Positions 3,257 through 17,172 are shown, counted from the stretch's first letter. The stretch is 32,000 bases of DNA from Candidatus Heimdallarchaeota archaeon B3_Heim (GCA_003144275.1 NJBF01000002.1:30001-62000), one strand, 5' to 3'. Program-made: numbers and translations. The notes: generated by a model from the letters alone, not told the origin.

Positions 3257-4258
3257 ATGCGGATTTTGAAGGATATTAAGGAATCAGATATTATTCATCT
3301 TCTACAATCTTATCTATCCTCATCCCCTTATATGGGGAGTAATGAAGATGCATATCTGATTAAAGATCATCCTCCATACATGCTAATTAATATTGACAGT
3401 ATGCAGCGGGACGGGGACTTCTTACCTAACCAGACTTGGGCTCAAATCGGAGGAAAATTGGTGACTATGACTTTTTCTGATTTGGTAGCAAAAGGAGCGT
3501 ATCCTGAAGCATTTCTATCCTCTCTCGTCCTTGAAACTGAAATGCTTGAAAAAGATCTTAAAGAGCTAGCTAGCGGTATATGCCAAGCTACTCACAAATA
3601 TAATTCGTCATATCTGGGTGGCGATTTAGGTTCGGCTTTTGAAGCAGTATTGACTGGAGTGGGAATTGGGTCTATTAAACAGGGAGAAATATTGACAAGA
3701 AGAAACGCTCAGGAAGGTGATCTAGTGTGTGTTTCGGGATATTTCGGACTTACTTCAATTGCTTTTGATGAGTTACTCAACAATAAAAAGACAAAAATCC
3801 CAACTATCTCTTCTCACATCCTAAATACCGCCATTAAAAAGGTTTATGAACCCGAATTACGATTGATGGAAGGAACACTGTTAAGTTCAAATAAAATTGC
3901 TTCTTCCTCTATTGACAGTTCTGATGGTTTAGCTTCTGCTCTTAATTGGTTGTCAAAAGAATCTAACATTCGTATAATCATTGATTATCTTCCTACTGAG
4001 CCTGATCTTCTACAATATGAACCTTCTCAAGATGTAATTCAGGAAATAACTTTTTATGGAGGGGAAGAATACGAAATAGTTTTTACCATTCCCTCCACTA
4101 AGTTAGATGAGACAGTGGATTTATTTGAGCGCAATAATATCCAGTGTATAGTTATTGGGAAATGCTATGAAGGAGAGGGTGTATTTTATAGAAAAGCTGA
4201 TAAAGACGTGAGAATTCCTCTATATGGATGGGATTCAATCCAACAACAGCACAAGTAG
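3257..4258 (+). CDS. thiL: Thiamine-monophosphate kinase
   Basis: EDAYL, NIDSM, SDLVAKGA, GGD, DLVCVSG, IDSSDGL and GGEEYEIVFT motifs of ThiL (PurM-like fold). Confidence 0.92.
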   Translation: MRILKDIKESDIIHLLQSYLSSSPYMGSNEDAYLIKDHPPYMLINIDSMQRDGDFLPNQTWAQIGGKLVTMTFSDLVAKGAYPEAFLSSLVLETEMLEKDLKELASGICQATHKYNSSYLGGDLGSAFEAVLTGVGIGSIKQGEILTRRNAQEGDLVCVSGYFGLTSIAFDELLNNKKTKIPTISSHILNTAIKKVYEPELRLMEGTLLSSNKIASSSIDSSDGLASALNWLSKESNIRIIIDYLPTEPDLLQYEPSQDVIQEITFYGGEEYEIVFTIPSTKLDETVDLFERNNIQCIVIGKCYEGEGVFYRKADKDVRIPLYGWDSIQQQHK

Positions 4259-4290
4259 CCAACTCATAACGCGAGGGAATAAAAAATATA

Positions 4291-4363
4291 TGCGCCGACC
4301 GGGATTTGAACCCAGGTCACCTGTGTGGCAGACAGGAGTCTTACCAGGCTGGACTATCGGCGC
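4291..4363 (-). tRNA. tRNA-Gly(GCC), intronless, CCA not encoded
   Basis: Cloverleaf: GCGCCGA/TCGGCGC acceptor, CCTGT-CTGCCAC-ACAGG anticodon arm, GGTTCAAATCC T-arm. Confidence 0.96.
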
Positions 4364-4527
4364 TGTTAATATAGTTTTATAGGTTATTGCTTTTTTCTGC
4401 GGTTCCAATTCAGTTACTGCGTTAATAGCTCATTAATGGGTAGATATTTGTATTTTACCTCTATTCGAAAATTGATCTTTTATCACTGATTACCTTTCAT
4501 TTTTAATCTTTACAACGTCAGGACTAT

Positions 4528-5277
4528 TTATTTAAGTTGTAGTTCTATCCATTTCAAAACACCCATTAAAGTTGTGACTTCTCGCCCTGTAATATATCCT
4601 CGTGAAAGTATATTTGAAAATGCCTGATTTGCTACCTTTAATTTTTCTGGATGATAGTTAACGTTCTTTATTAATTGATTAAAGTATAATTTCAGCTGTT
4701 CTCGCTCATTAAATTTAGCAGCTCTATGCTTAGGTCTCTCCATTGTCTCCCTAATCTCAGTTAATTTCAAAACCTTTTTTATTTCATAGAGGATAATTGC
4801 AAGTGCATGAGATAAGTTCATCACTGGATATGCAGAATGTGATGGAATTGTTAAGACCACATCACATAAGTTGATTTCATCGTTTGTTAATCCATGTTGT
4901 TCTCTTCCAAAAACAAGACCTACACTGTTAAAAGGTAATGCATCTGTAAAAAGCTCTTCTGGAGTGATTGCTATGCGATTTAGATTGTAATCATTCCCTA
5001 CTCGTGCTGTGGTCCCAATAAGGAGATTAAAATCATTTCTCAACTCTGTTAACCCTGGGATAATAATTTCTGCTTGGTCTATTATCTGGATTGCTTTGCG
5101 AGCTACAATCTCTATTTCTGGATCTGCTAAATTAACCTTGGGATTAACCAAAATAAGATTTTTAAATCCAAAATTCATCATCACACGAGCAATACTACCA
5201 ATATTCTGAACTTTAGACGGTTCTACAAGAATGATGGATATTGTATGCTCTTCTGTTTCTGTAGATCGATTATTCAA
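4528..5277 (-). CDS. trmJ: SPOUT RNA methyltransferase, TrmJ/TrmH family (tRNA position 32 2'-O-methylase)
   Basis: LVEP..NIGSIARVMMNFG, GLVFGREQHGLTNDE and YPVMNLSHA motifs; TTG start with GGAG upstream. Confidence 0.88.
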   Translation of the reverse strand: MNNRSTETEEHTISIILVEPSKVQNIGSIARVMMNFGFKNLILVNPKVNLADPEIEIVARKAIQIIDQAEIIIPGLTELRNDFNLLIGTTARVGNDYNLNRIAITPEELFTDALPFNSVGLVFGREQHGLTNDEINLCDVVLTIPSHSAYPVMNLSHALAIILYEIKKVLKLTEIRETMERPKHRAAKFNEREQLKLYFNQLIKNVNYHPEKLKVANQAFSNILSRGYITGREVTTLMGVLKWIELQLK

Positions 5278-5438
5278 ATATGAATTCTCCGCTATGACAC
5301 CAGTATAAGGATTTCTTCTATTTTTATTTAATATCGAATATTCTTTATTTTATAGATAATTCTTTTTACTGTCTACATTTTGCCTGTTGTCGGAATACCT
5401 TACCTTCCTCCTATGCGGGGGTAGCCAAGTCAGGTCAA

Positions 5439-5493
5439 AGGCAGCTATACGCGGGCTAGACGACATTTTAGTTTGTCGCATGGCGCCGACCAA
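5439..5493 (+). other. tRNA intron, 55 nt, position 21/22 of tRNA-Leu
   Basis: BHB: central helix GGTC/GACC, AAA bulges on both strands, inner helix GGC/GCC. Confidence 0.85.
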
Positions 5494-5509
5494 AGGCGCT
5501 GGACTTAAG

Positions 5510-5527
5510 ATCTACATAGAATGAGAA
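5510..5527 (+). other. tRNA intron, 18 nt, position 37/38 of tRNA-Leu
   Basis: Central helix CTTA/TGAG, 3' bulge AAA, inner TCT/AGA. Confidence 0.88.
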
Positions 5528-5602
5528 ATCCAGTCGTATAGACGTTCGAGGGTTCAAACCCCTCCCCCCGCATGTTCTTTCTGCTATATTATTGCCTTTC
5601 AG

Positions 5603-6928
5603 CTACTCATCGATTTTTCCAATTAGGTAATTTCTTGTTGCACCAGTTATTGTCACTGTTTGAAAAGTCCCTAGTTCCTTCTTAGAATCATTAATTACGA
5701 CAGGTAGATAGGATGAGTTTCGTGCCTTTAACTGCTTTTTCTTCGTTCCTTTACTGTCAATAATAACAGAACCTGTCCAACCTATCCAAGACTCTAATTC
5801 TTGTTTTGAAATCTCTTGACTAAGCTGCATTAGCCTCTTAGATCGTTGGGATTTAATTTTCGTGGGAACTTTAGATCTCGATTTCGCTGCTGTGGTTCCA
5901 GGACGATCTGTATATTTGGAAATATTGATAATTGTTGGTCGAACTTGAGTTATTAGTAACTCTGATAATTCAAAATCTTCTTCAGTCTCTCCTGGGAACC
6001 CTACAATGATATCTGTTGACAAAACAAGTCTAGGGATCTTGGATTTCAATTCATGAATGAGCTCGATGTATTCCTCTCTTTTTCCTTTCCGTCTCATCTT
6101 GGTAAGGATGAAATTTGAGCCAGATTGAATAGGTAAATGTAAAAATGAAAACACTTTAGAATTATTTATTTGCTTAATCAATGGTTCTCTGAATGTTTTT
6201 ATTGTATATGGTGTCATCATTCCGATACGAATATAAAATTGACCTTGAATTTCAACAAGTTCACTAATTAAATCTGGTAAAGTGACTTTGGGTTCCCTTT
6301 CCCAACCGTATGTTCCTGTATCTTGGGCTGTAAGCCAAATTTCCTTACTCCCAGCGTCAAGCGAATTATTAACTTCTTTTATTATGGACGAAGGAGATCT
6401 AGATCGCAAATGACCTTTTGCATGTTTAACAATACAATAACTGCAATTACCAAGACATCCTCTTGATATTTCCACAGTTGTAATAAGAGGATTATATAAA
6501 ACCCGCTTGTGAGAATACAATTTTTCCCATACCTGTGTATCTAGTCGAAGATTTGCATTCACAGGTTGATTCTCAATCAGGGAAAGAATTTCATTCGCAT
6601 TCTCTGGATAAAGAATTCTGGCATTAGGTACATTCTGTTCAATCCATTCTTGCATTACTACCGGTAAACATCCTGTAACTATTACATTGCGAGTATCGGG
6701 AAGAGAAAGTAAAAGATCTTTCATCCTGTGTTCCGTGTTCTGCTTTACAATGCATGTATTAATAATGATGAGGTCGGTATTAACATCTGTAGTAGAAATA
6801 GAGTAACCATATTGCTTTAATACCCCTGAAATTCCCTCAGCAATAGCCCGATTAGCGCTACATCCAAAATTCATCACTGTAGCTGTTTTGGAGATTTCTT
6901 CTTCCATATTTGTTTCCATATTATACAA
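5603..6928 (-). CDS. Radical SAM tRNA methylthiotransferase (MiaB-like, archaeal/eukaryotic MtaB-CDKAL1 type)
   Basis: UPF0004 N-domain (FGCSAN, INTCIVK, VTGCL), CLGNCSYC cluster motif, HLPIQSGS, TDIIVGFPGETEEDF, C-terminal TRAM-like region. Confidence 0.9.
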   Translation of the reverse strand: MYNMETNMEEEISKTATVMNFGCSANRAIAEGISGVLKQYGYSISTTDVNTDLIIINTCIVKQNTEHRMKDLLLSLPDTRNVIVTGCLPVVMQEWIEQNVPNARILYPENANEILSLIENQPVNANLRLDTQVWEKLYSHKRVLYNPLITTVEISRGCLGNCSYCIVKHAKGHLRSRSPSSIIKEVNNSLDAGSKEIWLTAQDTGTYGWEREPKVTLPDLISELVEIQGQFYIRIGMMTPYTIKTFREPLIKQINNSKVFSFLHLPIQSGSNFILTKMRRKGKREEYIELIHELKSKIPRLVLSTDIIVGFPGETEEDFELSELLITQVRPTIINISKYTDRPGTTAAKSRSKVPTKIKSQRSKRLMQLSQEISKQELESWIGWTGSVIIDSKGTKKKQLKARNSSYLPVVINDSKKELGTFQTVTITGATRNYLIGKIDE

Positions 6929-6995
6929 CTTTTAATGAATATAAATCAAATTTTCTGAGAAATCAAACATTCACCCTAATAGCAAAAATAGAGCT

Positions 6996-7934
6996 TCATG
7001 ATGAGAGTTTGGAATTAATCCATTCTGCGATTAATTGTACAACACTAACAGTTGTTAGGCCAGGAATATCTGATTTTATGCTATCTGTTGTAACAAAAAG
7101 TCGGATATCTTCTTTGGCTAGTTTTTTAAATTTTTCCGTTGTATGTACACCATGTATATATCCTAAATAAACTTCTTTCACCCCTTGTTGCTTGAATATC
7201 CTCGCTGCTCCTATCATAGTTCCTCCAGAACTCACAAGATCATCAACAATTAAAATATGCCTATTTTGCAACGAGATATCTATTCCTACAAGCTCTTGTG
7301 TAATTTCTCCAGTATCTGGATCCCTTTTTTTTCGGATTGCACCATAAAATTGTGAATTAATTGCATCTGCCGCTTCTTTGGCCAACATAAGAGCCCCTTC
7401 ATCTGGGGAAAAGCATAAAATATCTTCTGATGAATTACTAAGCTTTTTTACTTTCTGAGCAACCAACGGAATTGCAGATAGGCTGATAGATTCTGATTCA
7501 GAAAAGAAATCACTAAGGGGATTCTTACCATATGAATGAGAATTGATAGTTAAGTATTGGTTAATACCTGCAGATTCTAGCATAGAAGCGAGATACATAC
7601 TTGAAACGGGTTCGCCCAAGCGAGATTCGCGATCCTGCCTAGAATAAATATGATAGGGCATAATGCAGGTAATTTTTGCCGCTCCAAGGCGTTTAACATT
7701 ATAAATGGTCAACAGAAAGGAAATTAAGTACTGATTTTTCGATTGATCTAGTGCTAATTGCATTGCGATGATGACATGCGCATCTTGCATTATATTCCCA
7801 TCATCCAATAGCAATCGAGGGCAAACTTCGCCATCAGGGAAGGTTCTTTCATCAATTTCAATGAAAATCGCTCCATCTATCTCAGTTGATAGCTTTCCTG
7901 CAAATTCATGTTTACCAACAACTACAACCTTCAT
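6996..7934 (-). CDS. prs: Ribose-phosphate pyrophosphokinase
   Basis: FPDGE, PYHIYSRQDR, SPDEGA and LIVDDLVSSGGTM (PRPP-binding loop). Confidence 0.94.
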   Translation of the reverse strand: MKVVVVGKHEFAGKLSTEIDGAIFIEIDERTFPDGEVCPRLLLDDGNIMQDAHVIIAMQLALDQSKNQYLISFLLTIYNVKRLGAAKITCIMPYHIYSRQDRESRLGEPVSSMYLASMLESAGINQYLTINSHSYGKNPLSDFFSESESISLSAIPLVAQKVKKLSNSSEDILCFSPDEGALMLAKEAADAINSQFYGAIRKKRDPDTGEITQELVGIDISLQNRHILIVDDLVSSGGTMIGAARIFKQQGVKEVYLGYIHGVHTTEKFKKLAKEDIRLFVTTDSIKSDIPGLTTVSVVQLIAEWINSKLSS

Positions 7935-8129
7935 AGTATTTCAAACCTGCAACAATCTTACACTCTACAATCCGTTTTCCTTTAGAAAAAAAACTTCCCT
8001 TCTCGAGTTAACTCGAAGCATAGGAAATATAGTTCTCTAATTTTGTACGATACTAGTTAAAATACATCAATAAAATCAAGATCATATCAATTGTACTTGC
8101 CCAATAATCACTGAATAGAGAAGATTGAG

Positions 8130-9401
8130 ATGAAAGAAGACATAGAAAACCCTAAAAGATCCTCCTCGCGTGCTTGGTTTACTGGAAACGTGCTTCTTTT
8201 AGGTTTAGTATCTTTTTTTGCAGATCTTTCAGGAGAAATGATGACTCCCGTACTTCCTTTGTTTATTGCTGCGCTTGGAGGATCCAGTGTTGTCATTGGT
8301 TTCATTGGTGGATTAGGTGACGCAGTAGCAAACATTGTTAAGGTTTTTTCAGGTTATATAGCAGATAAAACTGGAAGAAGGAGGCAATTGATCGCTGTGG
8401 GGTATGGAATCCCTTTCTTCGCCAAACTTGGTATAGGACTTTCGAATGCATGGGAACAGGTGTTAGTACTAAAACCGACAGAAAGATTAGGAAAAGGAAT
8501 TCGGGGAGCACCACGTGATTCATTACTTGCTGATTCCATTTCGTTTGAAGAAAGAGGAAAAGCCTTCGGATTCCATCGTATGATGGATACTGCTGGGGCA
8601 ATTGTAGGATCATTATTAGCGTTAATTATCCTAATCATGTTTTATGGGATTCTAAATGATGAATTAGGAATTCTAAAACTGATTCTCATTATTTCGGCTT
8701 TTGTTTCTCTCGCAGCAGTTATTCCAATTTTCTTTCTCTCAGATCAGGAAGAGAAACAAATCACCGAGGAACGGAAGAAATCTAGTTTAGTTGATAATCT
8801 CAAAGGTTTACCAGGGAATTTTTACAAATTCCTAATCGTCTCAACTTTGTTTGGATTTGGTAATTTTACCATCTTATTATTCATCATTCATACTAAAACA
8901 ATTTTATTAGGTGCAGATCCTAATGCATCTGAGTTTGTCCAACTCGCATTCCCAATTGTTACTTTCATTTGGTTTAACATTATCTACACAATCCTCTCCA
9001 TACCGTTTGGATCTTGGTCAGATAAGTATGGTAGAAAAAATATTTTTGCGGTAGGTTTAGGTCTATTTATATTCACATGTTTAGGTTTTTCCCTGACGAC
9101 CGATCCAATTATTCTTTTCCTATTATTTGGTGTATATGGGGCTTTTAACGCAGCGACTGATGGAATTCAGAAGGCCTTTGCAGTAGATCTTCTCCCTGAG
9201 GATCTCAAAGGTACGGGGATTGGATTACTTCAGGCTTTAATGGGGTTTGCGAGTATTTTTGGAGGGCTTATCGCGGGTTATCTTTACGATTTTGAAAGCT
9301 CCTTTGCCTTTTTGTATGGTGGAATACTAGCAGGAATTACTTTACTAGTATTATTTGGAATGAATATTTCTATCACACGTCCAAACGATATTGATCAATG
9401 A
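8130..9401 (+). CDS. Major facilitator superfamily transporter
   Basis: About 12 TM segments; motif A in both halves (GYIADKTGRRR, GSWSDKYGRK); ERLGKGIRGAPRD. Confidence 0.92.
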   Translation: MKEDIENPKRSSSRAWFTGNVLLLGLVSFFADLSGEMMTPVLPLFIAALGGSSVVIGFIGGLGDAVANIVKVFSGYIADKTGRRRQLIAVGYGIPFFAKLGIGLSNAWEQVLVLKPTERLGKGIRGAPRDSLLADSISFEERGKAFGFHRMMDTAGAIVGSLLALIILIMFYGILNDELGILKLILIISAFVSLAAVIPIFFLSDQEEKQITEERKKSSLVDNLKGLPGNFYKFLIVSTLFGFGNFTILLFIIHTKTILLGADPNASEFVQLAFPIVTFIWFNIIYTILSIPFGSWSDKYGRKNIFAVGLGLFIFTCLGFSLTTDPIILFLLFGVYGAFNAATDGIQKAFAVDLLPEDLKGTGIGLLQALMGFASIFGGLIAGYLYDFESSFAFLYGGILAGITLLVLFGMNISITRPNDIDQ

Positions 9402-9431
9402 AAATAAAAAAAAGAGATGCTCCGACCGAGA

Positions 9432-9464
9432 GTTTCAAAGATAGAGTACAAAACTACTATCTCA
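9432..9464 (-). other. tRNA intron, ~33 nt, position 59/60 of tRNA-Glu
   Basis: Strict BHB: central TTCA/TGAA, bulges AAT and ACT, inner helix GAGATAG/CTATCTT, outer helix is the T-stem. Confidence 0.88.
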
Positions 9465-9485
9465 TTTGAACTCGGGTCGTAGGGG

Positions 9486-9517
9486 TTATCCTGATATCTC
9501 ATACAAGAAGATATCAT
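9486..9517 (-). other. tRNA intron, 32 nt, position 37/38 of tRNA-Glu
   Basis: Bulges CAA and AAC, inner helix TGATATCT/AGATATCA, central CTCT/GGAT with one mismatch. Confidence 0.88.
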
Positions 9518-9614
9518 TGAGAGCCCTAAATGATGGACCAAGCTACACTATCGGAGCAAGTGTTTTAATTTGATGTAGTGCTGGGGGGGGGGTTTGAACC
9601 CCCGACTTCGGGAT

Positions 9615-9676
9615 GTCCCATGTTAGCGCGTTTCAAATTAGCCCTTTGAAAGGTAATGTGAGAATCGCTCTCAGAT
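9615..9676 (-). other. tRNA intron, 62 nt, position 37/38 of tRNA-Met
   Basis: Central CTCA/TGGG, bulges TAA and ACA; two internal hairpins. Confidence 0.87.
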
Positions 9677-9700
9677 TATGAGTCCCGCGCTATACCAGGC

Positions 9701-9729
9701 CTCGCCGCAATAATCAGGTTTTTATTGCT
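9701..9729 (-). other. tRNA intron, 29 nt, position 14/15 of tRNA-Met
   Basis: Inner helix GCAATAA/TTATTGC, bulges TAA and AGG, central GGCT/GGCG (3 bp plus a mismatch); removal restores GCTTA|GCCTGGTATAGC. Confidence 0.82.
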
Positions 9730-9942
9730 TAAGCCACCCCAGCAAGGCGTTAATTATCATAAGCTATATTTATGTACCAACGCATCCGAATTTACCACCA
9801 GAACCTAGTAGATTAAAAGATTGCGTTTGATAAGTTTGGGAAGGTACTAGTAATTTTAAAAATTAACGTTGTAACGATGCTTTAGTTAGGACTAGTTCGT
9901 TTGCCCCGATGGTGTAGCTTGGTCTAGCATTGATGGCTGTCA

Positions 9943-9972
9943 AAGACTTGTCAAGTCTGACAGTCAGCAGAC
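9943..9972 (+). other. tRNA intron, 30 nt, position 37/38 of tRNA-Asp
   Basis: Central CTGT/GCAG, bulges CAA and ACC, internal hairpin GAC(T)TGTCA/TGACAGTC. Confidence 0.87.
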
Positions 9973-9993
9973 CCCATCCGACTCGGGTTCAAA

Positions 9994-10023
9994 AGGTACA
10001 AACTATTTGTTTATACTTGAAAA
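9994..10023 (+). other. tRNA intron, 30 nt, position 59/60 of tRNA-Asp
   Basis: Strict BHB: central TTCA/TGAA, bulges AAA and AAT, inner GGTA/TACT. Confidence 0.88.
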
Positions 10024-10049
10024 TCCCGATCGGGGCGCCAGTTCTTCAT

Positions 10050-10150
10050 GGGCGCATAGCTCAGCCAGGTAGAGCGACAGGCTTTTAGTGGTTGTTTATT
10101 ATTGACCAAAAGAAACCTGTTGGCCGGGGGTTCAACTCCCTCTGCGCCCG
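10050..10150 (+). tRNA. tRNA-Lys(TTT) with one canonical intron
   Basis: GGGCGCA/TGCGCCC acceptor; ACAGG-CTTTTAA-CCTGT anticodon arm after removing 10088-10114; starts 9 nt after tRNA-Asp. Confidence 0.94.
10088..10114 (+). other. tRNA intron, 27 nt, position 37/38 of tRNA-Lys
   Basis: Strict BHB: central CTTT/AAAG, bulges TAG and AAA, inner TGGT/ACCA. Confidence 0.9.
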
Positions 10151-10589
10151 TTACTTCTCTTTTTAGAATAACAAATAAAAAAAATACGAATTTTTCTTAC
10201 CACAATTTTTGGTATTATTTTTATCTAGAATAAATAAAAGACTTTTAACCAATATTCGAGGTTAGTAAAGTGAATATTTTGGTTTTTATAAAGTCATTGA
10301 CATACAATGACTAAAAACGTCAAATGAGTACTGTTTAACAACTGTGAGAACGAAGGGTTATATGTGAAAAGAAGGTTATAGAACAAAGTTGGTATTCTTC
10401 TATCCATAGAATCTTCACTCATTCTAATTTTTTGGAAAATCGTTACCCCATCCGTCTTTTGGATCGAATTCGATATTTGATGAAATTTATTATTGTGTTT
10501 GGGGAAAGAAAAGGAATTCTTCAGCATTTAAGCCTGGTATGCGCCCATATCACGTTTAATTCTCTTGAATTGACATTTTAGAGAATTTA

Positions 10590-11957
10590 CTACAATCCTT
10601 CAAAACCTGGGGGAAGCCCACCTGGTGCTCCTCCACGTCGGCCTCGCATTTTTCTCATGGCCTTAAATTGTTTTGTCATTTGATTAAATTGTTTTAATAG
10701 TTGTTTTACCTCTTGAGGCGAGGTACCTGAACCTCGGGCAATTCGCTGTATGCGCTTTCCTTTTATTATTCGAGCATCATCCAGTTCTTCATCAGTCATT
10801 GAGCCACAGATTGCTAGAAATCGTTTCATACCTTTTTGACTTTCTTCCTCCAAATTTGGCTGTTGACCCATCATACTACTAACTCCAGGAATTTTAGAAA
10901 CTAATTTTCCTATTGAAGATTGCTTATTAGCGGTCTCCATTTGCTTTTGAAAATGTCTTAAGGTAATTTTTCCCTTTTTAAAGGCATCACGTATTTCTGC
11001 AGTATCTTCTTCATCAAAAGCTTCATTTACCTTAGTTACTAATCCTTCCAAATCCCCCATTCCAAGGAGTGATCCAACAAATCGTGTAGGATTGAATTCT
11101 TCAAGATCTTGGATTTTTTCACCATCACCATAGAAGCGGATCACTGCACCAGTAACTGATACGGCGGATACTGCCCCACCACCTTTTGCAGATCCATCCA
11201 ATTTAGTTAAAATAATTGATCCTAAAGGTGTTGCACGATTAAAAGCGTCCGCTTGAGCTTGGGCTTGCTGACCAATGGTTGCATCAACAACTAAGATTAT
11301 TTCAGTTGGGCTAGATACTTTAGCTATTGACTGCATCTCTTTAAGTAGGGATTTCTCCTCCTTATGGCGCCCTGTTGTGTCAATTAGGATAAGATTGATA
11401 TTTTTCATTCCCTCAAAATGCTTCAACCCTTTTTTTATGACATTGGTGGCTTTTTTCTCTTTTTCATCACCATAAACTTCAACGTCTATTGGAGCCAAAT
11501 TCTGTTGAAGTTGCACCAAAGCCCCAGGTCTGAATGTATCTCCACCTATTACTCCGATTTTAAATCCTCGTTTTTGAAAGTAATTGGCTAGTTTACCGAT
11601 AGCTGTTGTTTTTCCAGATCCTTGGATTCCGATAAGCAACAGGATAGATTTTTCATTTGGATTTAAACGCAAAGGGTCATGTTTTCTTCCGAGAAGATTT
11701 GTTAATTCATCATAAATGACCTTCAATGTATAATCGCGTCTGCTTAAACCTGGAGGGATATTATCTTTCAAGGCTTTATTACGCACTACGTCACACATAT
11801 TCAGAGCTAGATCTAAATTCACGTCTGCACCCAGTAGTGCATTTTCTAGATCTTTCATTAATTCTTTTATTAATTTTTCATCAACGATTGGCGCTCCTCG
11901 AATCTTCATAATCGTTTTGCGCAAAGATGACCCTAGAGAATCAAGCAAGTTGTACAC
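10590..11957 (-). CDS. srp54: Signal recognition particle 54 kDa protein
   Basis: NG GTPase motifs GIQGSGKTT, DTFRPGA, DTTGRH, TKLDGSAKGGGA; Met-rich M domain with RIARGSG. Confidence 0.97.
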   Translation of the reverse strand: MYNLLDSLGSSLRKTIMKIRGAPIVDEKLIKELMKDLENALLGADVNLDLALNMCDVVRNKALKDNIPPGLSRRDYTLKVIYDELTNLLGRKHDPLRLNPNEKSILLLIGIQGSGKTTAIGKLANYFQKRGFKIGVIGGDTFRPGALVQLQQNLAPIDVEVYGDEKEKKATNVIKKGLKHFEGMKNINLILIDTTGRHKEEKSLLKEMQSIAKVSSPTEIILVVDATIGQQAQAQADAFNRATPLGSIILTKLDGSAKGGGAVSAVSVTGAVIRFYGDGEKIQDLEEFNPTRFVGSLLGMGDLEGLVTKVNEAFDEEDTAEIRDAFKKGKITLRHFQKQMETANKQSSIGKLVSKIPGVSSMMGQQPNLEEESQKGMKRFLAICGSMTDEELDDARIIKGKRIQRIARGSGTSPQEVKQLLKQFNQMTKQFKAMRKMRGRRGGAPGGLPPGFEGL

Positions 11958-12129
11958 CTCTTTTTTTGTATGTTTATTACTTTCTCAAATATTTTTTTTG
12001 GTTCCATTTTCTTGAACTCAAATATCGATATCTAATTTAGAAAGATACATCCTATTTGGTTTAGATGCCTCTTTCTACTGATAATGACTGCTCCTGAGAC
12101 AATTGTCAGAATATCTCGATTGATCTGGA

Positions 12130-12711
12130 TCACTCTTGATCGAGCATATAATTGAGAATTGTGATAGTTTGGGAACTTAGATATTCATCTGATCCCAAAG
12201 ATACCCTTTTTAATTTAGAAAGAATTGTTTCATCCTCCGATGGGTATCCCAATTGGTCACCTATTATGAATGATTGATAAGTGGAGATTCTCTTATGATT
12301 AACCTCTCCATGGATGTCTAACATAACTGGTTCATGTTTAGTAAGTAAATTTTCTAGATTTCCTGAATAGAAGCGAATTCCAGGATGTGGGAAACCCCGA
12401 AAAACGCGTTTTAAGATCCCTGCAATCGCACGCTCGTCTGGATTAATACCATGAACATTCTCCCCAGTAATCTGTAAAATGGTTTTATTAATTACAAAAT
12501 AAACATAGAGTAGAACATCCTTACGAAAATTATTTGAAAGAAAAAAAGCTGTTGAAATACATCTACATAATACATCCAAGCGCCCATAACTTGTTAATGA
12601 ATTAATGGAAAGAGGTTTAAAAGTATCCACAGAATTGGAAGTGATTATGAAAATTCTATTCATTTTAGGTAACCACATTGGATTTTCAAGGTCTAATAAG
12701 ACTGATGACAA
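12130..12711 (-). CDS. trmY: tRNA (pseudouridine54-N1)-methyltransferase
   Basis: GRLDVLCRC..AFFLSNNFRKDV, INPDERAIAG, IGDQLG and SLG..YLSSQTITILNY match the TrmY (DUF358) SPOUT family. Confidence 0.88.
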   Translation of the reverse strand: MSSVLLDLENPMWLPKMNRIFIITSNSVDTFKPLSINSLTSYGRLDVLCRCISTAFFLSNNFRKDVLLYVYFVINKTILQITGENVHGINPDERAIAGILKRVFRGFPHPGIRFYSGNLENLLTKHEPVMLDIHGEVNHKRISTYQSFIIGDQLGYPSEDETILSKLKRVSLGSDEYLSSQTITILNYMLDQE

Positions 12712-12804
12712 ATAGAAGCAATATATTCTTCGGCTGGAAAGTTTAAACTCGAAAGAAATAATTGCACTTTCTCCCTAAGCATGATTTGTTGAAACGTCAA
12801 GAAA

Positions 12805-14238
12805 TTGGACTTTCAAGCCTTTATACTTGAGGAAATCTCACGGAAAATGGATTTTCTTGTAATAGGAAGAAGGATTATCAAAATGGACTCGTATCTTTTC
12901 AAAACAATTGTACCTTTTATCGAAAAACATCATGTCTGTAATTCGTGTTTAGGCAGACAATTCGGTAACTTATTGACTGGTTTATCTAATGCAGATCGTG
13001 GTTCTGCATTAAAGATATTTCTTGCCATGGAGTGGGAAATCAATCATCGTCAAGCAAAAACTGGACTATCAAACATTTCGTCACTAGTATCAAAGGATTT
13101 TTCCATCGGAGAACATTCAGTTAGACGATATTTTCCGGATTCTGAACCTAATTCTCTACCCTGCACAATATGTCAAGATTTTCTTTCTTATCCATTTTTA
13201 GAAAGTTTGGCCAAGGAAGCATGTGATCTAGTAAGTGCGTATGAATTTTCGACTTTCTTGGTTGGCTCTAAATTTCCTCCTGGAATTATAGATAATGAGG
13301 ATATTACTCGGAGCACCTTTAGCTTTGAATATGGCGAATCTATCAAATCCGACTTCAACCGTGAACTTGGGAAAATCCTCTCAACGTTTATTCCAGACGC
13401 TACTGTTGATTTCAAAGCACCAGATATTGTATTTACCTTTGATCTTATTCAAAATAGTATCGATATTAAGAGTAACCCTCTTTTTATCTTGGGGAGATAT
13501 AGAAAATTAGAACGAGGTATTCCTCAATCAAAATGGTTCTGTCGTAAATGTCGAGGAGTAGGGTGTAATCACTGTAACTTTACAGGGAAAATGTATCAAG
13601 ATTCTGTTGAAGAATATGCTACGACGCCATTTTTTGACGCTGCAAAAGGAATTTCGAGTAAATTTCACGGATCGGGAAGAGAAGACATTGATGCTCGTAT
13701 GTTAGGAACAGGTAGGCCCTTTGTTATTGAAATTTCTGAACCTAAAATTAGAAATCTTGACTTCAAAGCGATTACGAAACAGATTTCTGATAATTCAAAC
13801 GGTAAAGTTGAAGTTACAATTGAAGGATTAACTAATAGAACTAAAGTACGAGAGATTAAAACTCGTTCGAGTAGAAATGCGAAAGCTTATAGAGCAGTGG
13901 TAACTTTAGAAAAATCGTTACCAGACAACCATTCAATTTTAGAAACTATTACTGAAGAATTTACAAATATCCTAATTCAACAACGAACACCCATAAGGGT
14001 TGCCCATAGAAGGGCGGATAAAATCAGAACGCGCAAAGTTTCTTCCTTTCAGATAGAAAAAGCAACTAAGGATGAAATAACGGTACATATAGTTTGTGAG
14101 GGAGGATTATATGTAAAAGAATTGATTAGTGGAGATCAGGGACGTACACAACCGAGTTTTTCTGGAAAATTGGGGATCCCAGCAGTGGTTACAAAATTGG
14201 ATGTTATTGAAGTATTTAAAAGCACTGATCCTATATAA
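12805..14238 (+). CDS. pus10: tRNA pseudouridine 54/55 synthase Pus10
   Basis: N-terminal CNSCLGRQF zinc site, THUMP-like region, GRYRKLERGIPQSKW, catalytic GREDIDARMLG, GGLYVKELISGD. Confidence 0.96.
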   Translation: MDFQAFILEEISRKMDFLVIGRRIIKMDSYLFKTIVPFIEKHHVCNSCLGRQFGNLLTGLSNADRGSALKIFLAMEWEINHRQAKTGLSNISSLVSKDFSIGEHSVRRYFPDSEPNSLPCTICQDFLSYPFLESLAKEACDLVSAYEFSTFLVGSKFPPGIIDNEDITRSTFSFEYGESIKSDFNRELGKILSTFIPDATVDFKAPDIVFTFDLIQNSIDIKSNPLFILGRYRKLERGIPQSKWFCRKCRGVGCNHCNFTGKMYQDSVEEYATTPFFDAAKGISSKFHGSGREDIDARMLGTGRPFVIEISEPKIRNLDFKAITKQISDNSNGKVEVTIEGLTNRTKVREIKTRSSRNAKAYRAVVTLEKSLPDNHSILETITEEFTNILIQQRTPIRVAHRRADKIRTRKVSSFQIEKATKDEITVHIVCEGGLYVKELISGDQGRTQPSFSGKLGIPAVVTKLDVIEVFKSTDPI

Positions 14239-14494
14239 TCTTGAAATCAAATAAACATAAGATATTCCTTAGAAAAATAAATTAATGGGCTTGAATAGGC
14301 AACATTTGCGGTTTATACAAAAAATTCTAACTGACTTCAGGTTTAGAGGTTTTTAGATTCTCAAAATTTATAATCACGTTTATCCCAGTTGTATTAGAAA
14401 GCCAAAAATAGTCATATGAAACTCCTTCCTTTAGTCTTTAAAGCCTATAAGAGTACTTCAATGTAAGTTGATTGCATAGGAATGCTCGGAAAAT

Positions 14495-14803
14495 TTGGGG
14501 CATACCAAGATGGTCAGAAAATCAAAGGGTACTAACTTTCGCACACGGAGAATTTTTTCTAAACATCCACGAAATAGAGGTTTACCATCTCTATCCCGTA
14601 CTTTAACGGAATATGAAGTAAATTCAAAGGTTAATATTGTTATAGAACCTAGCGTCCAAAAAAGTCGTCCGCATAGGCGATTTCATGGCAAAACGGGAGT
14701 CGTCTTAGAAAGACGTGGACAGGCATATGTTGTTCGTGTTACAGATGGTAAAAGCTATAAGAAAATCATAACACGTCCAGAGCACTTGAAGGCCCAGCAC
14801 TGA
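14495..14803 (+). CDS. rpl21e: 50S ribosomal protein L21e (start may be ATG 14510)
   Basis: MVRKSKG..RTRRIF, PHRRFHGKTGVV, RPEHLK. Confidence 0.96.
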   Translation: MGHTKMVRKSKGTNFRTRRIFSKHPRNRGLPSLSRTLTEYEVNSKVNIVIEPSVQKSRPHRRFHGKTGVVLERRGQAYVVRVTDGKSYKKIITRPEHLKAQH

Positions 14804-14844
14804 TCTTGAATTTATAACTAAATCGTTTTTGGAGATCCAAAAAG

Positions 14845-15243
14845 TTGGTACGAAAGGTTAAGGAAGAAAAGCCTATACCATTAGGGCAAGTATATGAATT
14901 CCTTCAGTTGAGGGAAGAATCTGGTATTAATTATGTTCAACGTGTTACTGCACAACACGCAGAAAATCTCTCAAGAGACGCTGCATATTCTGAAGAAGTC
15001 TTGGAAATGCTCCAATCTGAGTTTGATTTAACAAGATTATTAGCTGTTCAAATAGTCAATTTAAATCCTAAAACCGCAACTGATGTAAAAGCGGTAACTA
15101 GAGATCGTTTGACTGATGATCAAGTTGAGCAATTATTGGAACGGTATTCAGGATTTGTTTTAAAAGTTAAAGTAGCAATGGAAGAGAAAAAAAGCGAAGA
15201 AGAAGAACCTACTGAAATTGACGAGACCTTCGAAGATCTATAG
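14845..15243 (+). CDS. rpo4: DNA-directed RNA polymerase subunit Rpo4 (RpoF)
   Basis: Follows rpl21e as in the conserved archaeal cluster; EEKPIPLGQVYEFL and AVQIVNLNPKT..DVKAV (HRDC-like); TTG start after GGAG. Confidence 0.85.
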   Translation: MVRKVKEEKPIPLGQVYEFLQLREESGINYVQRVTAQHAENLSRDAAYSEEVLEMLQSEFDLTRLLAVQIVNLNPKTATDVKAVTRDRLTDDQVEQLLERYSGFVLKVKVAMEEKKSEEEEPTEIDETFEDL

Positions 15244-15481
15244 ATTTTCAATATTATTAGGAGTCTCACCTTGTGTTCACTTTTAGATATTTATTTTTAC
15301 TCGAATAGTGGATAGATCTATTCTAAGAGTTCGAGTACATAATTTAGCCGCCATTGAGGCATTCTCTTAGATTTAATTGATCTTACACCAGAAAAATTTA
15401 AATCGTTTAGAAGTTTAAATTGAAACGAGGCAAATTCATTAGACAGTGAATTAAAAAAGGGACGTGGTCTAGATTGGTTTT

Positions 15482-15511
15482 AATCGTATTTTTATTAAAT
15501 ACGTTGACCAA
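15482..15511 (+). other. tRNA intron, ~30 nt, D-loop just before A21 of tRNA-Pro (boundaries +/-1)
   Basis: Central GGTT/GACC, bulges TTA and AAA, inner helix CGTATTT/AAATACG. Confidence 0.8.
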
Positions 15512-15550
15512 ATGATTCTTGGTTCGGGACCAAGAGGCCGGGGGTTCAAA

Positions 15551-15581
15551 ATTAGACAAGCAGGAGGCTTTCTCATGAAAA
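15551..15581 (+). other. tRNA intron, 31 nt, position 59/60 of tRNA-Pro
   Basis: Central TTCA/TGAA, bulges AAA and AAT, inner AGA-AAGC/GCTT-TCT. Confidence 0.86.
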
Positions 15582-15631
15582 TCCCCCCGTCCCTATTTAT
15601 TCACTTTAATCCGAGATTGAGATGAAATGTA

Positions 15632-16174
15632 CTGAAATCAATCCCCACTTATTCACAATGCTTACAGCTTCTATTTCAATTTTCAGTACCTAATAGAGTA
15701 ATCACCCATTTATTCCTCACAACACAAACTGCTATGATAATCACAAGAGAACTGAAAACCCAGAATTATGTAATCGACTGTAATCTGGTTTTAGCTGGGG
15801 CCATGCTTCATGATATTGGAAGATCGCGATCACATAAGCTCGATCACGGGATAATAGGCGGAAAGCTCTTAAAAGAAGAAAAATTTCCAGCAGAACTAAT
15901 AAGCATTATAGAAAATCATGTTTTTGCAGGTATTTCTAAAGAAGAAGCATTAGAATTCAATCTTCCACATAGAGATTTTCTACCCCACTCATTAGAAGAG
16001 AAAGTAGTGGCTTATTCGGATAATATCTCAAAAAGCAATGCGATATTAACAACAGAACAGGTCATTATACGATATTCTCGCTATTTAGATGAAAAACATT
16101 CAATTATTCAACGAGTTTGGGATTTACATAACGAAATTGAATCATTACTTGTCACCCAAGTAAAAAAGGGATAA
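15632..16174 (+). CDS. HD-domain metal-dependent phosphohydrolase (archaeal HDIG type); real N-terminus lies upstream of the track's ATG 15734
   Basis: MLHDIGRSR, IIENHV, PHSLEEKVVAYSD motifs. The frame stays open back to 15626 and encodes IPTYSQCLQLL..VPNRVITH, which holds the expected first His. Confidence 0.82.
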   Translation: MKSIPTYSQCLQLLFQFSVPNRVITHLFLTTQTAMIITRELKTQNYVIDCNLVLAGAMLHDIGRSRSHKLDHGIIGGKLLKEEKFPAELISIIENHVFAGISKEEALEFNLPHRDFLPHSLEEKVVAYSDNISKSNAILTTEQVIIRYSRYLDEKHSIIQRVWDLHNEIESLLVTQVKKG

Positions 16175-16176
16175 TT

Positions 16177-17172
16177 GTGACAGATCATAAAAACATAGAG
16201 GAATTTATTTCATGGTTAAGGAAGAATAATAAGTCAATTATTCTTGCAATGCATAATCAGGCCGATCCTGATGCTGTTGGATCTGCTATAGCTTTGATTC
16301 ATTTAATAAAATATGTAAATCCCCAGATAGAAGTCTCTGTTTATGATCCTGACCTTAGTGGACTCAGTCAGAAATTACTCCTCCATCTCGACTATGAATT
16401 ACCAATAGTTTCAGAGTATGATATTTCTACACTCCTAATTCTTCTTGATAATCCTTCTATCCCTCTTAAACTCAATCAACCAGAAAGAAAAATAATTATT
16501 ATTGATCATCATGTCAAACAGGAGATCAAAACCAAATTACTATTTGATATTCGGAAGAGGAAGGTTACATCGACTGCAGAAATCATTGTACTGATCTATC
16601 AGATTGGAAATATCCCTCTAAATGCAATTAGCGTTAAAAGTCTTCTTGCAGGGATTATTTTTGATACTAGACGATTCCTTTATGTTAAAAATGAGCTTTT
16701 CAACAAAATTGTATACTTATTACAGGACTACCCAACTGCTTACAGGGAACTACTACCTCTTTTCACATCTACAAGGTCTTTTGATGAGCGTATTGCATGT
16801 ATCAAAGCAGCACAACGAATGAAAAGAGTAGAAATAAAAAAATTTCAAATCGTGCTTTCTCACGTTAGTTCTTTTGAGGCTGCTGCAGCTAGGTCATTAA
16901 TTTATCTTGGAGGGGATCTATCAATTGTGGTAGCCAGGCTCTCAGATCATTCTCGAATAAGTCTTCGTGCGACATCCGAGTTTACAAAATCAACAAATAT
17001 TTCCTTGGGACGAGATATCGTCCCTCTTCTCATTGACAAATTTGAAGGAACTGGTGGAGGTCATGATGGAGCTGCAGGATACAATTCTTCAACCCGAATG
17101 GATCTAAAATTAGTATTTGATTTTCTCTTACACAATCTTACAGATCTGATAAAGAAAAATCAAGAAAACTAG
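16177..17172 (+). CDS. DHH/DHHA1 family phosphoesterase
   Basis: HNQADPDAVGS, LLD, IIDHH, GIIFDT and GGGHDGAAG motifs. Confidence 0.9.
   Translation: MTDHKNIEEFISWLRKNNKSIILAMHNQADPDAVGSAIALIHLIKYVNPQIEVSVYDPDLSGLSQKLLLHLDYELPIVSEYDISTLLILLDNPSIPLKLNQPERKIIIIDHHVKQEIKTKLLFDIRKRKVTSTAEIIVLIYQIGNIPLNAISVKSLLAGIIFDTRRFLYVKNELFNKIVYLLQDYPTAYRELLPLFTSTRSFDERIACIKAAQRMKRVEIKKFQIVLSHVSSFEAAAARSLIYLGGDLSIVVARLSDHSRISLRATSEFTKSTNISLGRDIVPLLIDKFEGTGGGHDGAAGYNSSTRMDLKLVFDFLLHNLTDLIKKNQEN

Follow-up and report, generated by a model that had tools for sequence, protein, structure and literature searches.

Eleven predicted BHB introns in six of seven clustered tRNA genes of a Hodarchaeales archaeon, and their presence/absence polymorphism within the genus

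The 32,000-nucleotide stretch of DNA analysed here (the window), from Candidatus Heimdallarchaeota archaeon B3_Heim, contains seven tRNA genes between positions 4291 and 15595, six of which are interrupted by 11 introns of 18-62 nt (Table 1). The intron load differs among the genes: Gly(GCC) is uninterrupted, Lys(UUU) has a single intron, and two are found in each of Leu(UAA), Glu(CUC), elongator Met(CAU), Asp(GUC) and Pro(CGG). Five introns lie at position 37/38 (Leu, Glu, Met, Asp and Lys); the T-loop site 59/60 is interrupted in three genes (Glu, Asp and Pro), and a further three carry a D-loop intron (Leu, Pro and Met), the D-loop sites being on the 3' side after 20a/20b in Leu and Pro and at about 15/16 in Met. 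A preliminary, sequence-only reading of the window had counted six non-canonical introns, and the three T-loop and three D-loop sites therefore make that number right. Its tally of 11 introns in six of seven tRNAs, with five genes doubly interrupted, also stands, and the genes and insertions lie where that reading placed them, except for the D-loop boundary of Pro, which is revised to 15482-15511.

Table 1. tRNA genes of the window and their predicted introns, with coordinates counted from the first letter of the window
Feature	Coordinates	Strand	Details
tRNA-Gly(GCC)	4291..4363	-	uninterrupted; ARAGORN 119.4; Rfam RF00005 60.8 bits
tRNA-Leu(UAA), three exons (5415-5438, 5494-5509, 5528-5572)	5415..5572	+	spliced product ARAGORN 118.3
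Leu intron 1, 55 nt, D-loop (3' side, after 20a/20b)	5439..5493	+	BHB H GGUC/GACC 4/4
Leu intron 2, 18 nt, canonical 37/38	5510..5527	+	BHB central 4/4; outer helix 6 bp; inner helix weak
tRNA-Glu(CUC), three exons	9418..9557	-	spliced product ARAGORN 117.2
Glu intron, 33 nt, T-loop 59/60	9432..9464	-	BHB H UUCA/UGAA 4/4; outer helix = T-stem (5 bp); inner helix 7 bp
Glu intron, 32 nt, 37/38	9486..9517	-	BHB central 3/4; outer helix 5 bp; inner helix 9 bp
Elongator tRNA-Met(CAU), three exons	9579..9743	-	spliced product ARAGORN 119.9
Met intron 1, 27 nt, D-loop ~15/16	9702..9728	-	relaxed BHB: H GCUU/CGGC 3/4; no outer helix; inner helix 6 bp
Met intron 2, 62 nt, 37/38	9615..9676	-	BHB central 4/4; outer helix 5 bp
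tRNA-Asp(GUC), three exons, encoded CCA 10038-10040	9903..10040	+	spliced product ARAGORN 120.4
Asp intron, 30 nt, 37/38	9943..9972	+	BHB central 4/4 (CUGU/GCAG); outer helix 5 bp; inner helix offset
Asp intron, 30 nt, T-loop 59/60	9994..10023	+	BHB central 4/4; outer helix 5 bp; inner helix 4 bp
tRNA-Lys(UUU), two exons	10050..10150	+	Rfam RF00005 58.5 bits with 28-nt insert; spliced product ARAGORN 124.6
Lys intron, 27 nt, 37/38	10088..10114	+	textbook hBHBh': central 4/4; outer helix 7 bp; inner helix 6 bp
tRNA-Pro(CGG), three exons, A1-U72 acceptor	15458..15595	+	best spliced product ARAGORN 118.3
Pro intron 1, 30 nt, D-loop (3' side, after 20b)	15482..15511	+	boundary revised; BHB H GGUU/GACC 4/4
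Pro intron 2, 31 nt, T-loop 59/60	15551..15581	+	BHB H UUCA/UGAA 4/4; outer helix = T-stem (5 bp); inner helix weak

As the sequence-only reading anticipated, standard annotation misses or miscalls these genes: with default settings ARAGORN reports for the window Gly(GCC) alone and a false 'Ile(tat)' at 15463-15543, a miscall that falls within the Pro(CGG) gene, and the Rfam tRNA model (RF00005) detects only Gly and Lys among the seven. BHB-compatible deletions were enumerated, and each spliced product was scored in ARAGORN. The spliced products of the six interrupted genes score 113-125 (the lowest value, 113.1, being that of Pro(CGG) with its preferred D-loop boundary), as opposed to a maximum of 102 for 620 reversed decoy regions treated by the identical procedure. 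Once the introns are removed, all six genes give a canonical cloverleaf in which the anticodon loop is the expected one. The central helix of the BHB is fully paired (4/4) at nine junctions, each with a flanking helix, and 3/4 paired at two (Glu 37/38 and the Met D-loop), where the flanking helices are strong; central-helix mismatches are thus present as had been claimed, "several" being a slight overstatement. Split or permuted tRNA genes of the Nanoarchaeum, Caldivirga or Cyanidioschyzon type are ruled out by colinear exons in loci of 101-165 nt, as are group I and group II introns, since the ribozyme core needs hundreds of nucleotides and the inserts have 18-62. A search for Rfam intron matches in 3500-16500 returned none, even at E<=10.

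The presence or absence of the insertions in sister species served as a motif-free test of the junctions. For seven of the 11 introns (Glu T-loop and 37/38, Asp T-loop, Lys 37/38, Leu 37/38, and Pro D-loop and T-loop), intron-less orthologues or paralogues within the genus match the predicted junction. The Glu T-loop intron occurs in 11 of 16 congeners; in the remaining five the sequence is GGGTTCAAATCCCGG, identical to the junction predicted. The Glu 37/38 intron is found in 12 of the 16; in three species (G001, G010 and G016) the anticodon loop is uninterrupted and a variable-region intron is present instead. The Lys 37/38 intron occurs in 14 of 17 congeners; the same three species lack it and carry one in the T-loop instead. 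Just five of 14 congeners carry the Asp T-loop intron, which is missing in the close relative G003 (GGGTTCAAATCCCGA), and all 14 carry that at 37/38. Two Leu orthologues (G004 and G019) are devoid of intron 2 and have the predicted junction as their sequence, and Pro(CGG) in G001 and G016, where intron 2 is missing, reads GCGAGTTCGAATCTCGC. For the Leu and Met D-loop introns and the Met and Asp 37/38 introns, an intron-less homologue was not found among the congeneric genomes compared. Of these, Met intron 2 is almost unchanged in G003 and G013.

The D-loop insertions call for separate consideration. In Pro, the predicted BHB has bulges UU-A and AA-A and an inner helix of 9 bp with one mismatch. 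Its central helix is 100% paired over seven species that show three one-sided changes, and two pairs of the inner helix are altered on both sides. The boundary that ARAGORN scores best (15473-15504) was rejected, as its model fails in G014 and G017. Within the Pro precursor, 95.5% of the structure cells are paired, versus 35-53% when the partners are slid. In Leu, the bulges are AA-A and AA-A, the inner helix is GGC(A)GC/GCGCC, and the D-stem lies beyond a 6-nt loop. The insertion is present in all 17 congeneric species in which the gene has orthologues, its hairpin covarying (CGACA/UGUCG versus UGAUA/UAUCA). That of Met is present in the four orthologues found, with both strands of the inner hairpin altered in G021. 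Because no intron-less orthologue of the Leu and Met insertions was found, the argument for their removal is drawn from cloverleaf restoration, BHB potential and hairpin covariation.

It is conceivable that at least one of the three D-loop insertions (Leu 55, Met 27 and Pro 30 nt) is not an intron, being either kept in the mature tRNA or removed without EndA. All three are devoid of a contiguous exon-exon outer helix; that of Leu contains, in every one of the 17 species, an invariant 8-nt block (GGGCUAGA), which would be odd for a neutral intron; and the Discussion of a recent preprint (10.64898/2026.10.13.758758) cautions that certain insertions in the D-arm may be something other than introns. 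Against this, the 4/4 central helices of the Pro and Leu insertions sequester G18-G19 and are kept by one-sided and compensatory changes, the D-loop of intron-less Pro(UGG) in three congeners (G021, G016 and G001) reads AGCTTGGTTTTA, exactly the predicted mature form, and 27-55 extra nucleotides in a D-loop would clash with the D/T-loop tertiary fold. We therefore regard such an exception as improbable. Still less credible, to the point of being nearly negligible, is that these loci are pseudogenes in decay, or artefacts of assembling a genome from a metagenome, with functional copies in unassembled sequence: the genome is a draft of 103 contigs with 94% completeness, from which some tRNA genes could be absent, but independent assemblies of up to 17 congeneric genomes, two of which are a single contig, show genes interrupted in the same way, the exons are nearly invariant while intron interiors and flanks diverge, the introns with compensatory changes, and the spliced products are all high-scoring cloverleaves.

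The Leu, Glu and Asp genes are each the sole copy found in the genome, and the two other CAU tRNAs are an initiator (contig C10) and an Ile2-like tRNA (contig C50). Intron-less copies elsewhere, which the sequence-only reading had named as grounds for refutation, were not found in this draft genome for any of the six interrupted isoacceptors; since no second copy was found at 94% completeness, the six genes would have to be spliced. The sole RNA-library record matched to the locus is an adapter-flanked contig of 135 nt (9592-9726), in which the Met intron at 37/38 is retained in full and that of the D-loop for the most part; it could be precursor or contaminating DNA. It contains no exon joints, the absence of which contigs are unable to show.

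The SRP54 adjoining the tRNA cluster is 98% identical to that of a 'Ca. Heimdallarchaeota' metagenome-assembled genome and 93-94% identical to those of 'Ca. Hodarchaeota', and the genome has a GC content of 36%; the host is therefore an AT-rich Asgard archaeon, as had been supposed. It is plausibly mesophilic, the one support for this being contigs of 95-99% identity in a single marine-sediment metagenome.

Two EndA paralogues are encoded in the genome, P0001 (182 aa) and P0002 (215 aa), both on contig C57. P0001 is the predicted catalytic EndA alpha subunit, with an E-value of 8.5e-43 to that of Aeropyrum pernix (3P1Z_B) and an intact Tyr-His-Lys triad. It bears the L1/Crenarchaea-specific loop, where the alignment to 3P1Z_B is gapless (IRKPK versus VEKPR), and it aligns end to end with 3P1Z_B, 2CV8 (S. 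tokodaii) and 2ZYZ_B (P. aerophilum), with the loop, its Lys and the triad present. The loop Lys aligns with Lys44 of the A. pernix chain, which reportedly recognises RNA. P0002 is beta-like, with Ala or Ser at the catalytic His position in alignments and a 9-residue gap at the loop, and is closer to the EndA units of M. kandleri and M. jannaschii (E-values 1e-24 to 1e-19) than to the crenarchaeal beta subunit (2e-3). The pair is predicted from these alignments to form an EndA of the broad-specificity (alpha-beta)2 type, in both subunit assembly and substrate range, in line with the enzyme that the earlier reading had called for. RtcB is also encoded (559.8 bits).

In our assessment, the window very probably contains seven functional, single-copy tRNA genes of a member of the Hodarchaeales, six of which are transcribed as precursors with 11 BHB introns that are cut by EndA and joined by RtcB. 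Each intron-exon boundary would fold as a BHB or relaxed BHB. At 37/38, the anticodon stem would provide the outer helix; at 59/60, this role would fall to the T-stem, the universal UUCA of the T-loop pairing with UGAA at the 3' end of the intron; and in the D-loops of Leu and Pro, G18-G19-U20-N would pair with GRCC at the intron 3' end. The (alpha-beta)2 EndA, with the L1/Crenarchaea-specific loop on its catalytic subunit, may then cleave both bulges, after which RtcB would ligate the exons. We infer the cleavage and ligation of these precursors, the order of intron removal and the range of substrates that EndA accepts.

The multi-intron tRNA set is typical of published Asgard archaea, and the novelty implied by the sequence-only reading is not sustained. 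An (alpha-beta)2 EndA with the L1 loop was described for Asgard archaea by Kaneta (2018, PMC5829648), and their heavily interrupted tRNA genes, with D-arm and T-arm introns, were reported by Valentin-Alvarado (2024, PMC11291895) and by Goswami (2026, bioRxiv 10.64898/2026.10.13.758758), the latter preprint covering 90 Asgard genomes. As in the present genome, most tRNA genes in these sets (PMC11291895; 10.64898/2026.10.13.758758) are interrupted, many by two or more introns; the non-canonical introns are mostly in the T-arm and D-arm, those of the D-arm being missed by annotators; there are two EndA paralogues; gains and losses recur among relatives; and the introns form no sequence families. 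The published focus is on Atabeyarchaeia, Freyarchaeia and Jordiarchaeia, in which a tRNA gene has about 2.2 introns, and several Heimdallarchaeia lineages are given as having fewer than one, whereas this Hodarchaeales genome has at least 1.04 introns per tRNA gene, with 67% of its tRNA genes interrupted; the set described here, at about 1.6, is denser than that genome-wide average. Thermoproteales and other Crenarchaeota (Sugahara 2008 and Fujishima 2010, as cited in the same papers) likewise have BHB introns at non-canonical sites and up to two or three introns per gene, and they rely for splicing on an (alpha-beta)2 EndA that bears the Crenarchaea-specific loop. Among the introns of Thermoproteales, many fall into families common to several tRNAs, which suggests transposition (10.64898/2026.10.13.758758, Discussion, citing Fujishima 2010); tRNA-shared families of this kind were not seen in the present genome. 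Unlike the Thermoproteales, the host, at 36% GC, is probably no thermophile.

What the present analysis adds is the within-genus polymorphism of intron gain and loss, above all at position 59/60. This site has been repeatedly hit or cleared within the genus, the tRNA families affected numbering at least six (Glu, Asp, Lys, Leu, Pro and Met). The Asp T-loop intron, for example, is present in G000 and G013 and missing in G003, in genomes about 90% identical at the locus. The 2026 preprint regards the arrival of introns as the central open problem (10.64898/2026.10.13.758758). An ACAAAC...GUUUGU hairpin is common to the Asp T-loop intron of this genome and the Glu T-loop intron of sister species, and the Glu and Asp genes are adjoining, inverted and 74% identical. 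The likeness of the two introns might reflect copying, e.g., gene conversion between neighbouring paralogous tRNA genes, a suggestion that we hold to be rather unlikely; if true, it would give a concrete route by which introns spread in this genus. The intron-less form of the Asp T-loop junction also occurs in a marine-sediment DNA contig, with a loose end at 9993.

Over the interval 4291-15595, ARAGORN with default settings returned only tRNA-Gly(GCC) and a “tRNA-Ile(tat)”, and the Rfam tRNA model returned Gly together with Lys, the latter with a 28-nt insert; these searches were blind to five of the seven tRNA genes and miscalled one as Ile(UAU). The Ile call is an artefact assembled from pieces of the interrupted Pro(CGG) gene, and would put a spurious AUA decoder into an annotation. 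With five genes invisible and one miscalled, inferences on the codon usage and tRNA complement of the lineage would therefore be wrong unless the calling is intron-aware. Read directly, the intergenic gaps contain tRNA-like exons parted by AT-rich inserts. A scanner for bulge-helix-bulge (BHB) motifs (a 4-bp central helix between two 3-nt bulges, with the cut behind the second base of each bulge, and outer and inner flanking helices) was calibrated with the textbook Lys intron; all single and double BHB-compatible deletions were enumerated per region, and every spliced product was scored with ARAGORN. The same pipeline, applied genome-wide to 310 GC-rich intergenic regions on both strands plus reversed decoys, reached a decoy maximum of 102. 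Set against the scores in the table, the spliced cloverleaves of the six genes are therefore far beyond chance.

Features of the tRNA region and its neighbourhood, with ARAGORN scores (best spliced product for the six interrupted genes) and intron occurrence among the species in which the orthologue was recovered (G, related genomes of the same genus; L, orthologous loci; C, contigs)
Feature	Positions	ARAGORN score	Occurrence or remark
tRNA-Gly(GCC)	4291-4363		
tRNA-Leu(UAA)		118.3	D-loop intron 17/17; 37/38 intron 15/17; T-loop intron in 5
tRNA-Glu(CUC)		117.2	37/38 intron 12/16; T-loop intron 11/16; variable-region intron (about 45/46) replacing 37/38 in G001 (L064), G016 (L062) and G010 (L063); additional D-loop 15/16 intron in G004 (L051/L075)
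tRNA-Met(CAU), elongator		119.9	both introns in 4/4 species found; extra T-loop intron in G021
tRNA-Asp(GUC)		120.4	37/38 intron 14/14; T-loop intron 5/14
tRNA-Lys(UUU)		124.6	37/38 intron 14/17; T-loop intron in 4
tRNA-Pro(CGG)		118.3	D-loop intron 9/9; T-loop intron 7/9
Leu D-loop intron	5439-5493		orthologues L078-L098
Met 37/38 intron	9615-9676		62 nt
Asp T-loop intron	9994-10023		
Asp encoded 3' CCA	10038-10040		
“tRNA-Ile(tat)”	15463-15543	100.8	artefact
Pro D-loop intron, ARAGORN-best model	15473-15504		rejected
Pro D-loop intron, corrected prediction	15482-15511		
SpoU-family methylase gene	4528-5277		Pfam
Radical-SAM protein gene (UPF0004 and TRAM domains)	5603-6928		Pfam; resembles MiaB-type methylthiotransferase
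PF04013 SPOUT methyltransferase gene	12130-12711		Pfam
Pus10 gene	12805-14238		Pfam; divergently adjacent to the PF04013 gene
Metatranscriptome contig (135 nt)	9592-9726		Met(CAU) locus

The sequence-only reading had counted 11 inserts in six genes, and this count is borne out: five lie at the canonical 37/38 site, three at the T-loop 59/60 site (Glu, Asp, Pro) and three in the D-loop (Leu, Met, Pro). All four central pairs form in nine of them, and three of the four in the Glu 37/38 and Met D-loop introns. A genome-internal search for intron sequence families or transposition matched every one of the 11 introns to itself alone, with the pairwise scores among them at shuffle level.

The boundary of the Pro D-loop intron required correction. 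The ARAGORN-best model (at about 15/16) was rejected: the D-loop of its product is without G18G19, its helices are broken in G014 and G017, two of the congeners, and it is the corrected placement that intron-less Pro(UGG) genes fit. The latter is supported as the predicted boundary because the congener alignment, the intron-less Pro(UGG) D-loops and the helix pairing all favour it. The Pro(CGG) genes of seven congeners align without gaps, and the intron-less Pro(UGG) D-loop, AGCTTGGTTTTA in three congeners, is identical to the BHB-predicted junction. In the predicted BHB, GACC at the intron's 3' end is the pairing partner of G18-G19-U-U. Across the seven-species alignment, 100% of the central-helix cells are paired; three of the four pairs show changes on one side only, and in the inner helix both partners have changed at two pairs. 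In total, this model has 95.5% of its cells paired, compared to 35-53% with the partners slid by 1-3 columns.

Second copies of the seven tRNAs were sought using ARAGORN with and without intron mode, genome-wide Infernal, the tRNA census and blastn of the mature sequences. Each isoacceptor matched solely at its own exons in the 94%-complete assembly; the remaining matches are related isoacceptors, namely Lys(CUU), Pro(UGG) and Glu(UUC). The genome has three CAU tRNAs: an initiator (contig C10), an Ile2-like tRNA (C50) and the elongator Met of the window. Intact intron-less copies elsewhere, which had been named as evidence against the interpretation, were thus not found in this assembly; the interrupted genes stand, and these loci are the working genes.

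The census comprises 45 high-confidence tRNA genes, of which 15 carry no intron, 14 one, 15 two and a single gene three. This amounts to a minimum of 1.04 introns per gene, and 67% of the genes are interrupted; the totals are approximate lower bounds from an automated procedure in which some class II identities were miscalled, two adjacent Gln genes were merged and six calls scored low (104-110). With 11 introns in seven genes, the window lies above the genome-wide density yet within a comparable range. One further locus, C10:37765-37873 of this genome, is read as Ile(tat) by the census under one splice model, and as Pyl(cta) by ARAGORN in intron mode.

Two EndA genes occur in the genome, both on contig C57. 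The alpha-like protein P0001 (182 aa) gives an end-to-end alignment to 3P1Z_B of A. pernix (E-value 8.5e-43), and likewise to the chains 2CV8 of S. tokodaii and 2ZYZ_B of P. aerophilum; the L1/Crenarchaea-specific loop is present together with its Lys (IRKPK opposite VEKPR), as is the Tyr/His/Lys triad. Its beta-like paralogue P0002 (215 aa, 25% identity to P0001) has a 9-residue gap at the loop position, and Ala or Ser at the position of the catalytic His. The two proteins, one with loop and triad and the other without, would thus form the (alpha-beta)2 type of endonuclease that had been proposed as a candidate. RtcB is also present (559.8 bits). The suggestion of an AT-rich Asgard genome was likewise correct: the GC content is 36.1%, and SRP54, whose gene lies some 440 nt away from the tRNA cluster, shares 98% identity with that of a “Ca. 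Heimdallarchaeota” MAG, 93-94% with those of “Ca. Hodarchaeota” MAGs and about 79% with those of further Hodarchaeota, Heimdallarchaeota and Promethearchaeota MAGs. Hodarchaeales is an Asgard order often placed nearest to eukaryotes.

Splicing of all six genes by EndA and RtcB at the predicted junctions is very probable. Least secure are the Leu and Met D-loop inserts: both are without a contiguous outer helix, and no intron-less orthologue of either was found among the congeners searched; the Leu insert shares the design of its Pro counterpart (GGUC/GACC). We consider it conceivable, but highly improbable, that a D-loop insert is something other than an EndA intron. On 9405-10165, no spliced joint occurred in contigs from two RNA runs, one DNA run and a further run that is probably DNA; being contigs only, this data set is uninformative on the absence of splicing. 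The single RNA-library contig on this stretch, from a 2025 sediment metatranscriptome (run X20) and flanked by Illumina adapters on both sides, covers the unspliced Met(CAU) locus with 3 mismatches; read in the sense of the tRNA, it starts 2 nt into the D-loop intron and ends at T-loop position 60. Its origin may be a precursor or a processing intermediate from a near relative, or DNA carry-over.

When 40 related genomes were searched with the DNA of Pro, Leu and the cluster, syntenic orthologues emerged across the whole of a single genus (21 species). In the congener alignments the exons are almost invariant, while the intron interiors diverge fast yet keep their hairpins. Where a species lacks an intron, its compact sequence is in every case identical to the BHB-predicted junction, as in the compact Glu form GGGTTCAAA|TCCCGG. 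The most interesting residue of the analysis is the within-genus turnover of introns at T-loop 59/60. The Asp T-loop intron, for example, is missing in G003, whose flanking DNA is about 88-96% identical, and the intron-less form is also found on a marine-sediment DNA contig; in Lys(UUU), a T-loop intron replaces the 37/38 intron in G001, G016 and G010. The 21 sequenced congeners thus provide a fine-grained matrix of intron presence and absence, from which gains and losses could be dated and routes of intron arrival tested.

The Asp T-loop intron and the Glu T-loop introns of four congeners (G006, L053; G011, L057; G015, L061; G017, L055) have a common ACAAAC...GUUUGU hairpin; the Glu T-loop intron of the present genome is unrelated to its Asp T-loop intron. 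Pairs of Asp and Glu T-loop introns score 3-5, against a shuffle null with a 99.9% level of 4 and a maximum of 7, the congener pairs being non-independent. This is a weak, non-significant hint, suggestive of a relationship between the Asp intron and its sister-species Glu counterparts. Gene conversion between the two genes is conceivable, since they are neighbouring, inverted and 74% identical. For the Glu T-loop intron, counting covariation on an alignment (A1) was given up, as the interiors of different lineages are unalignable.

The multi-intron state, whose novelty had been implied, is real but already published for Asgard archaea. In three complete Atabeyarchaeia and Freyarchaeia genomes, 92-95% of tRNA genes contain introns, often multiple and non-canonical (Valentin-Alvarado et al. 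2024; PMC11291895). An October 2026 preprint surveying 90 Asgard genomes (10.64898/2026.10.13.758758) reports that about 30% of inserts, mainly in the D-arm, are missed by tRNAscan-SE, that called introns cluster at 37/38 and in the T-arm, that introns were gained repeatedly without forming sequence families, that two EndA paralogues occur in 44 of 60 genomes, and that experimental proof of splicing is still absent. The (alpha-beta)2 architecture had already been assigned to Asgard archaea (Kaneta et al. 2018; PMC5829648). Everything observed in the present genome fits the surveyed Asgard archaea, including the absence of intron families. These tRNA genes leave the known mechanism unchanged, and add to the published pattern a Hodarchaeales example with matching predicted (alpha-beta)2 EndA and RtcB.

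The Leu D-loop intron, a 51-64-nt insert, differs from the other introns in being present in all 17 congeners examined. It contains a near-invariant block, GGGCUAGA (GGGCUAAA in G020), which RNAalifold pairs with exon U8-C12 (UAGCC), the 5' strand of the D-stem, with no covariation; the block may represent an intron-borne decoy or folding element. The Met 37/38 intron is almost invariant, with one difference among this genome, G003 and G013; it has no Rfam match and contains an inverted repeat, UUUCAAA...UUUGAAA; in the loop of the nearby Met D-loop intron, 5-6 positions differ among the same three. Inspection by eye and Rfam (E<=10) gave no convincing C/D-box or k-turn in the Leu D-loop or 62-nt Met intron.

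The 3' CCA is encoded in Asp(GUC) alone among the seven tRNA genes of the window, and likewise in the initiator tRNA elsewhere in the genome (C10:1249-1346). The tRNA genes are surrounded by genes of RNA- or tRNA-modification type (Pfam; 4528-7000 and 12130-14238). The PF04013 methyltransferase is presumably TrmY-like; Pus10 and TrmY act at T-loop positions 54/55, which adjoin the 59/60 intron site.
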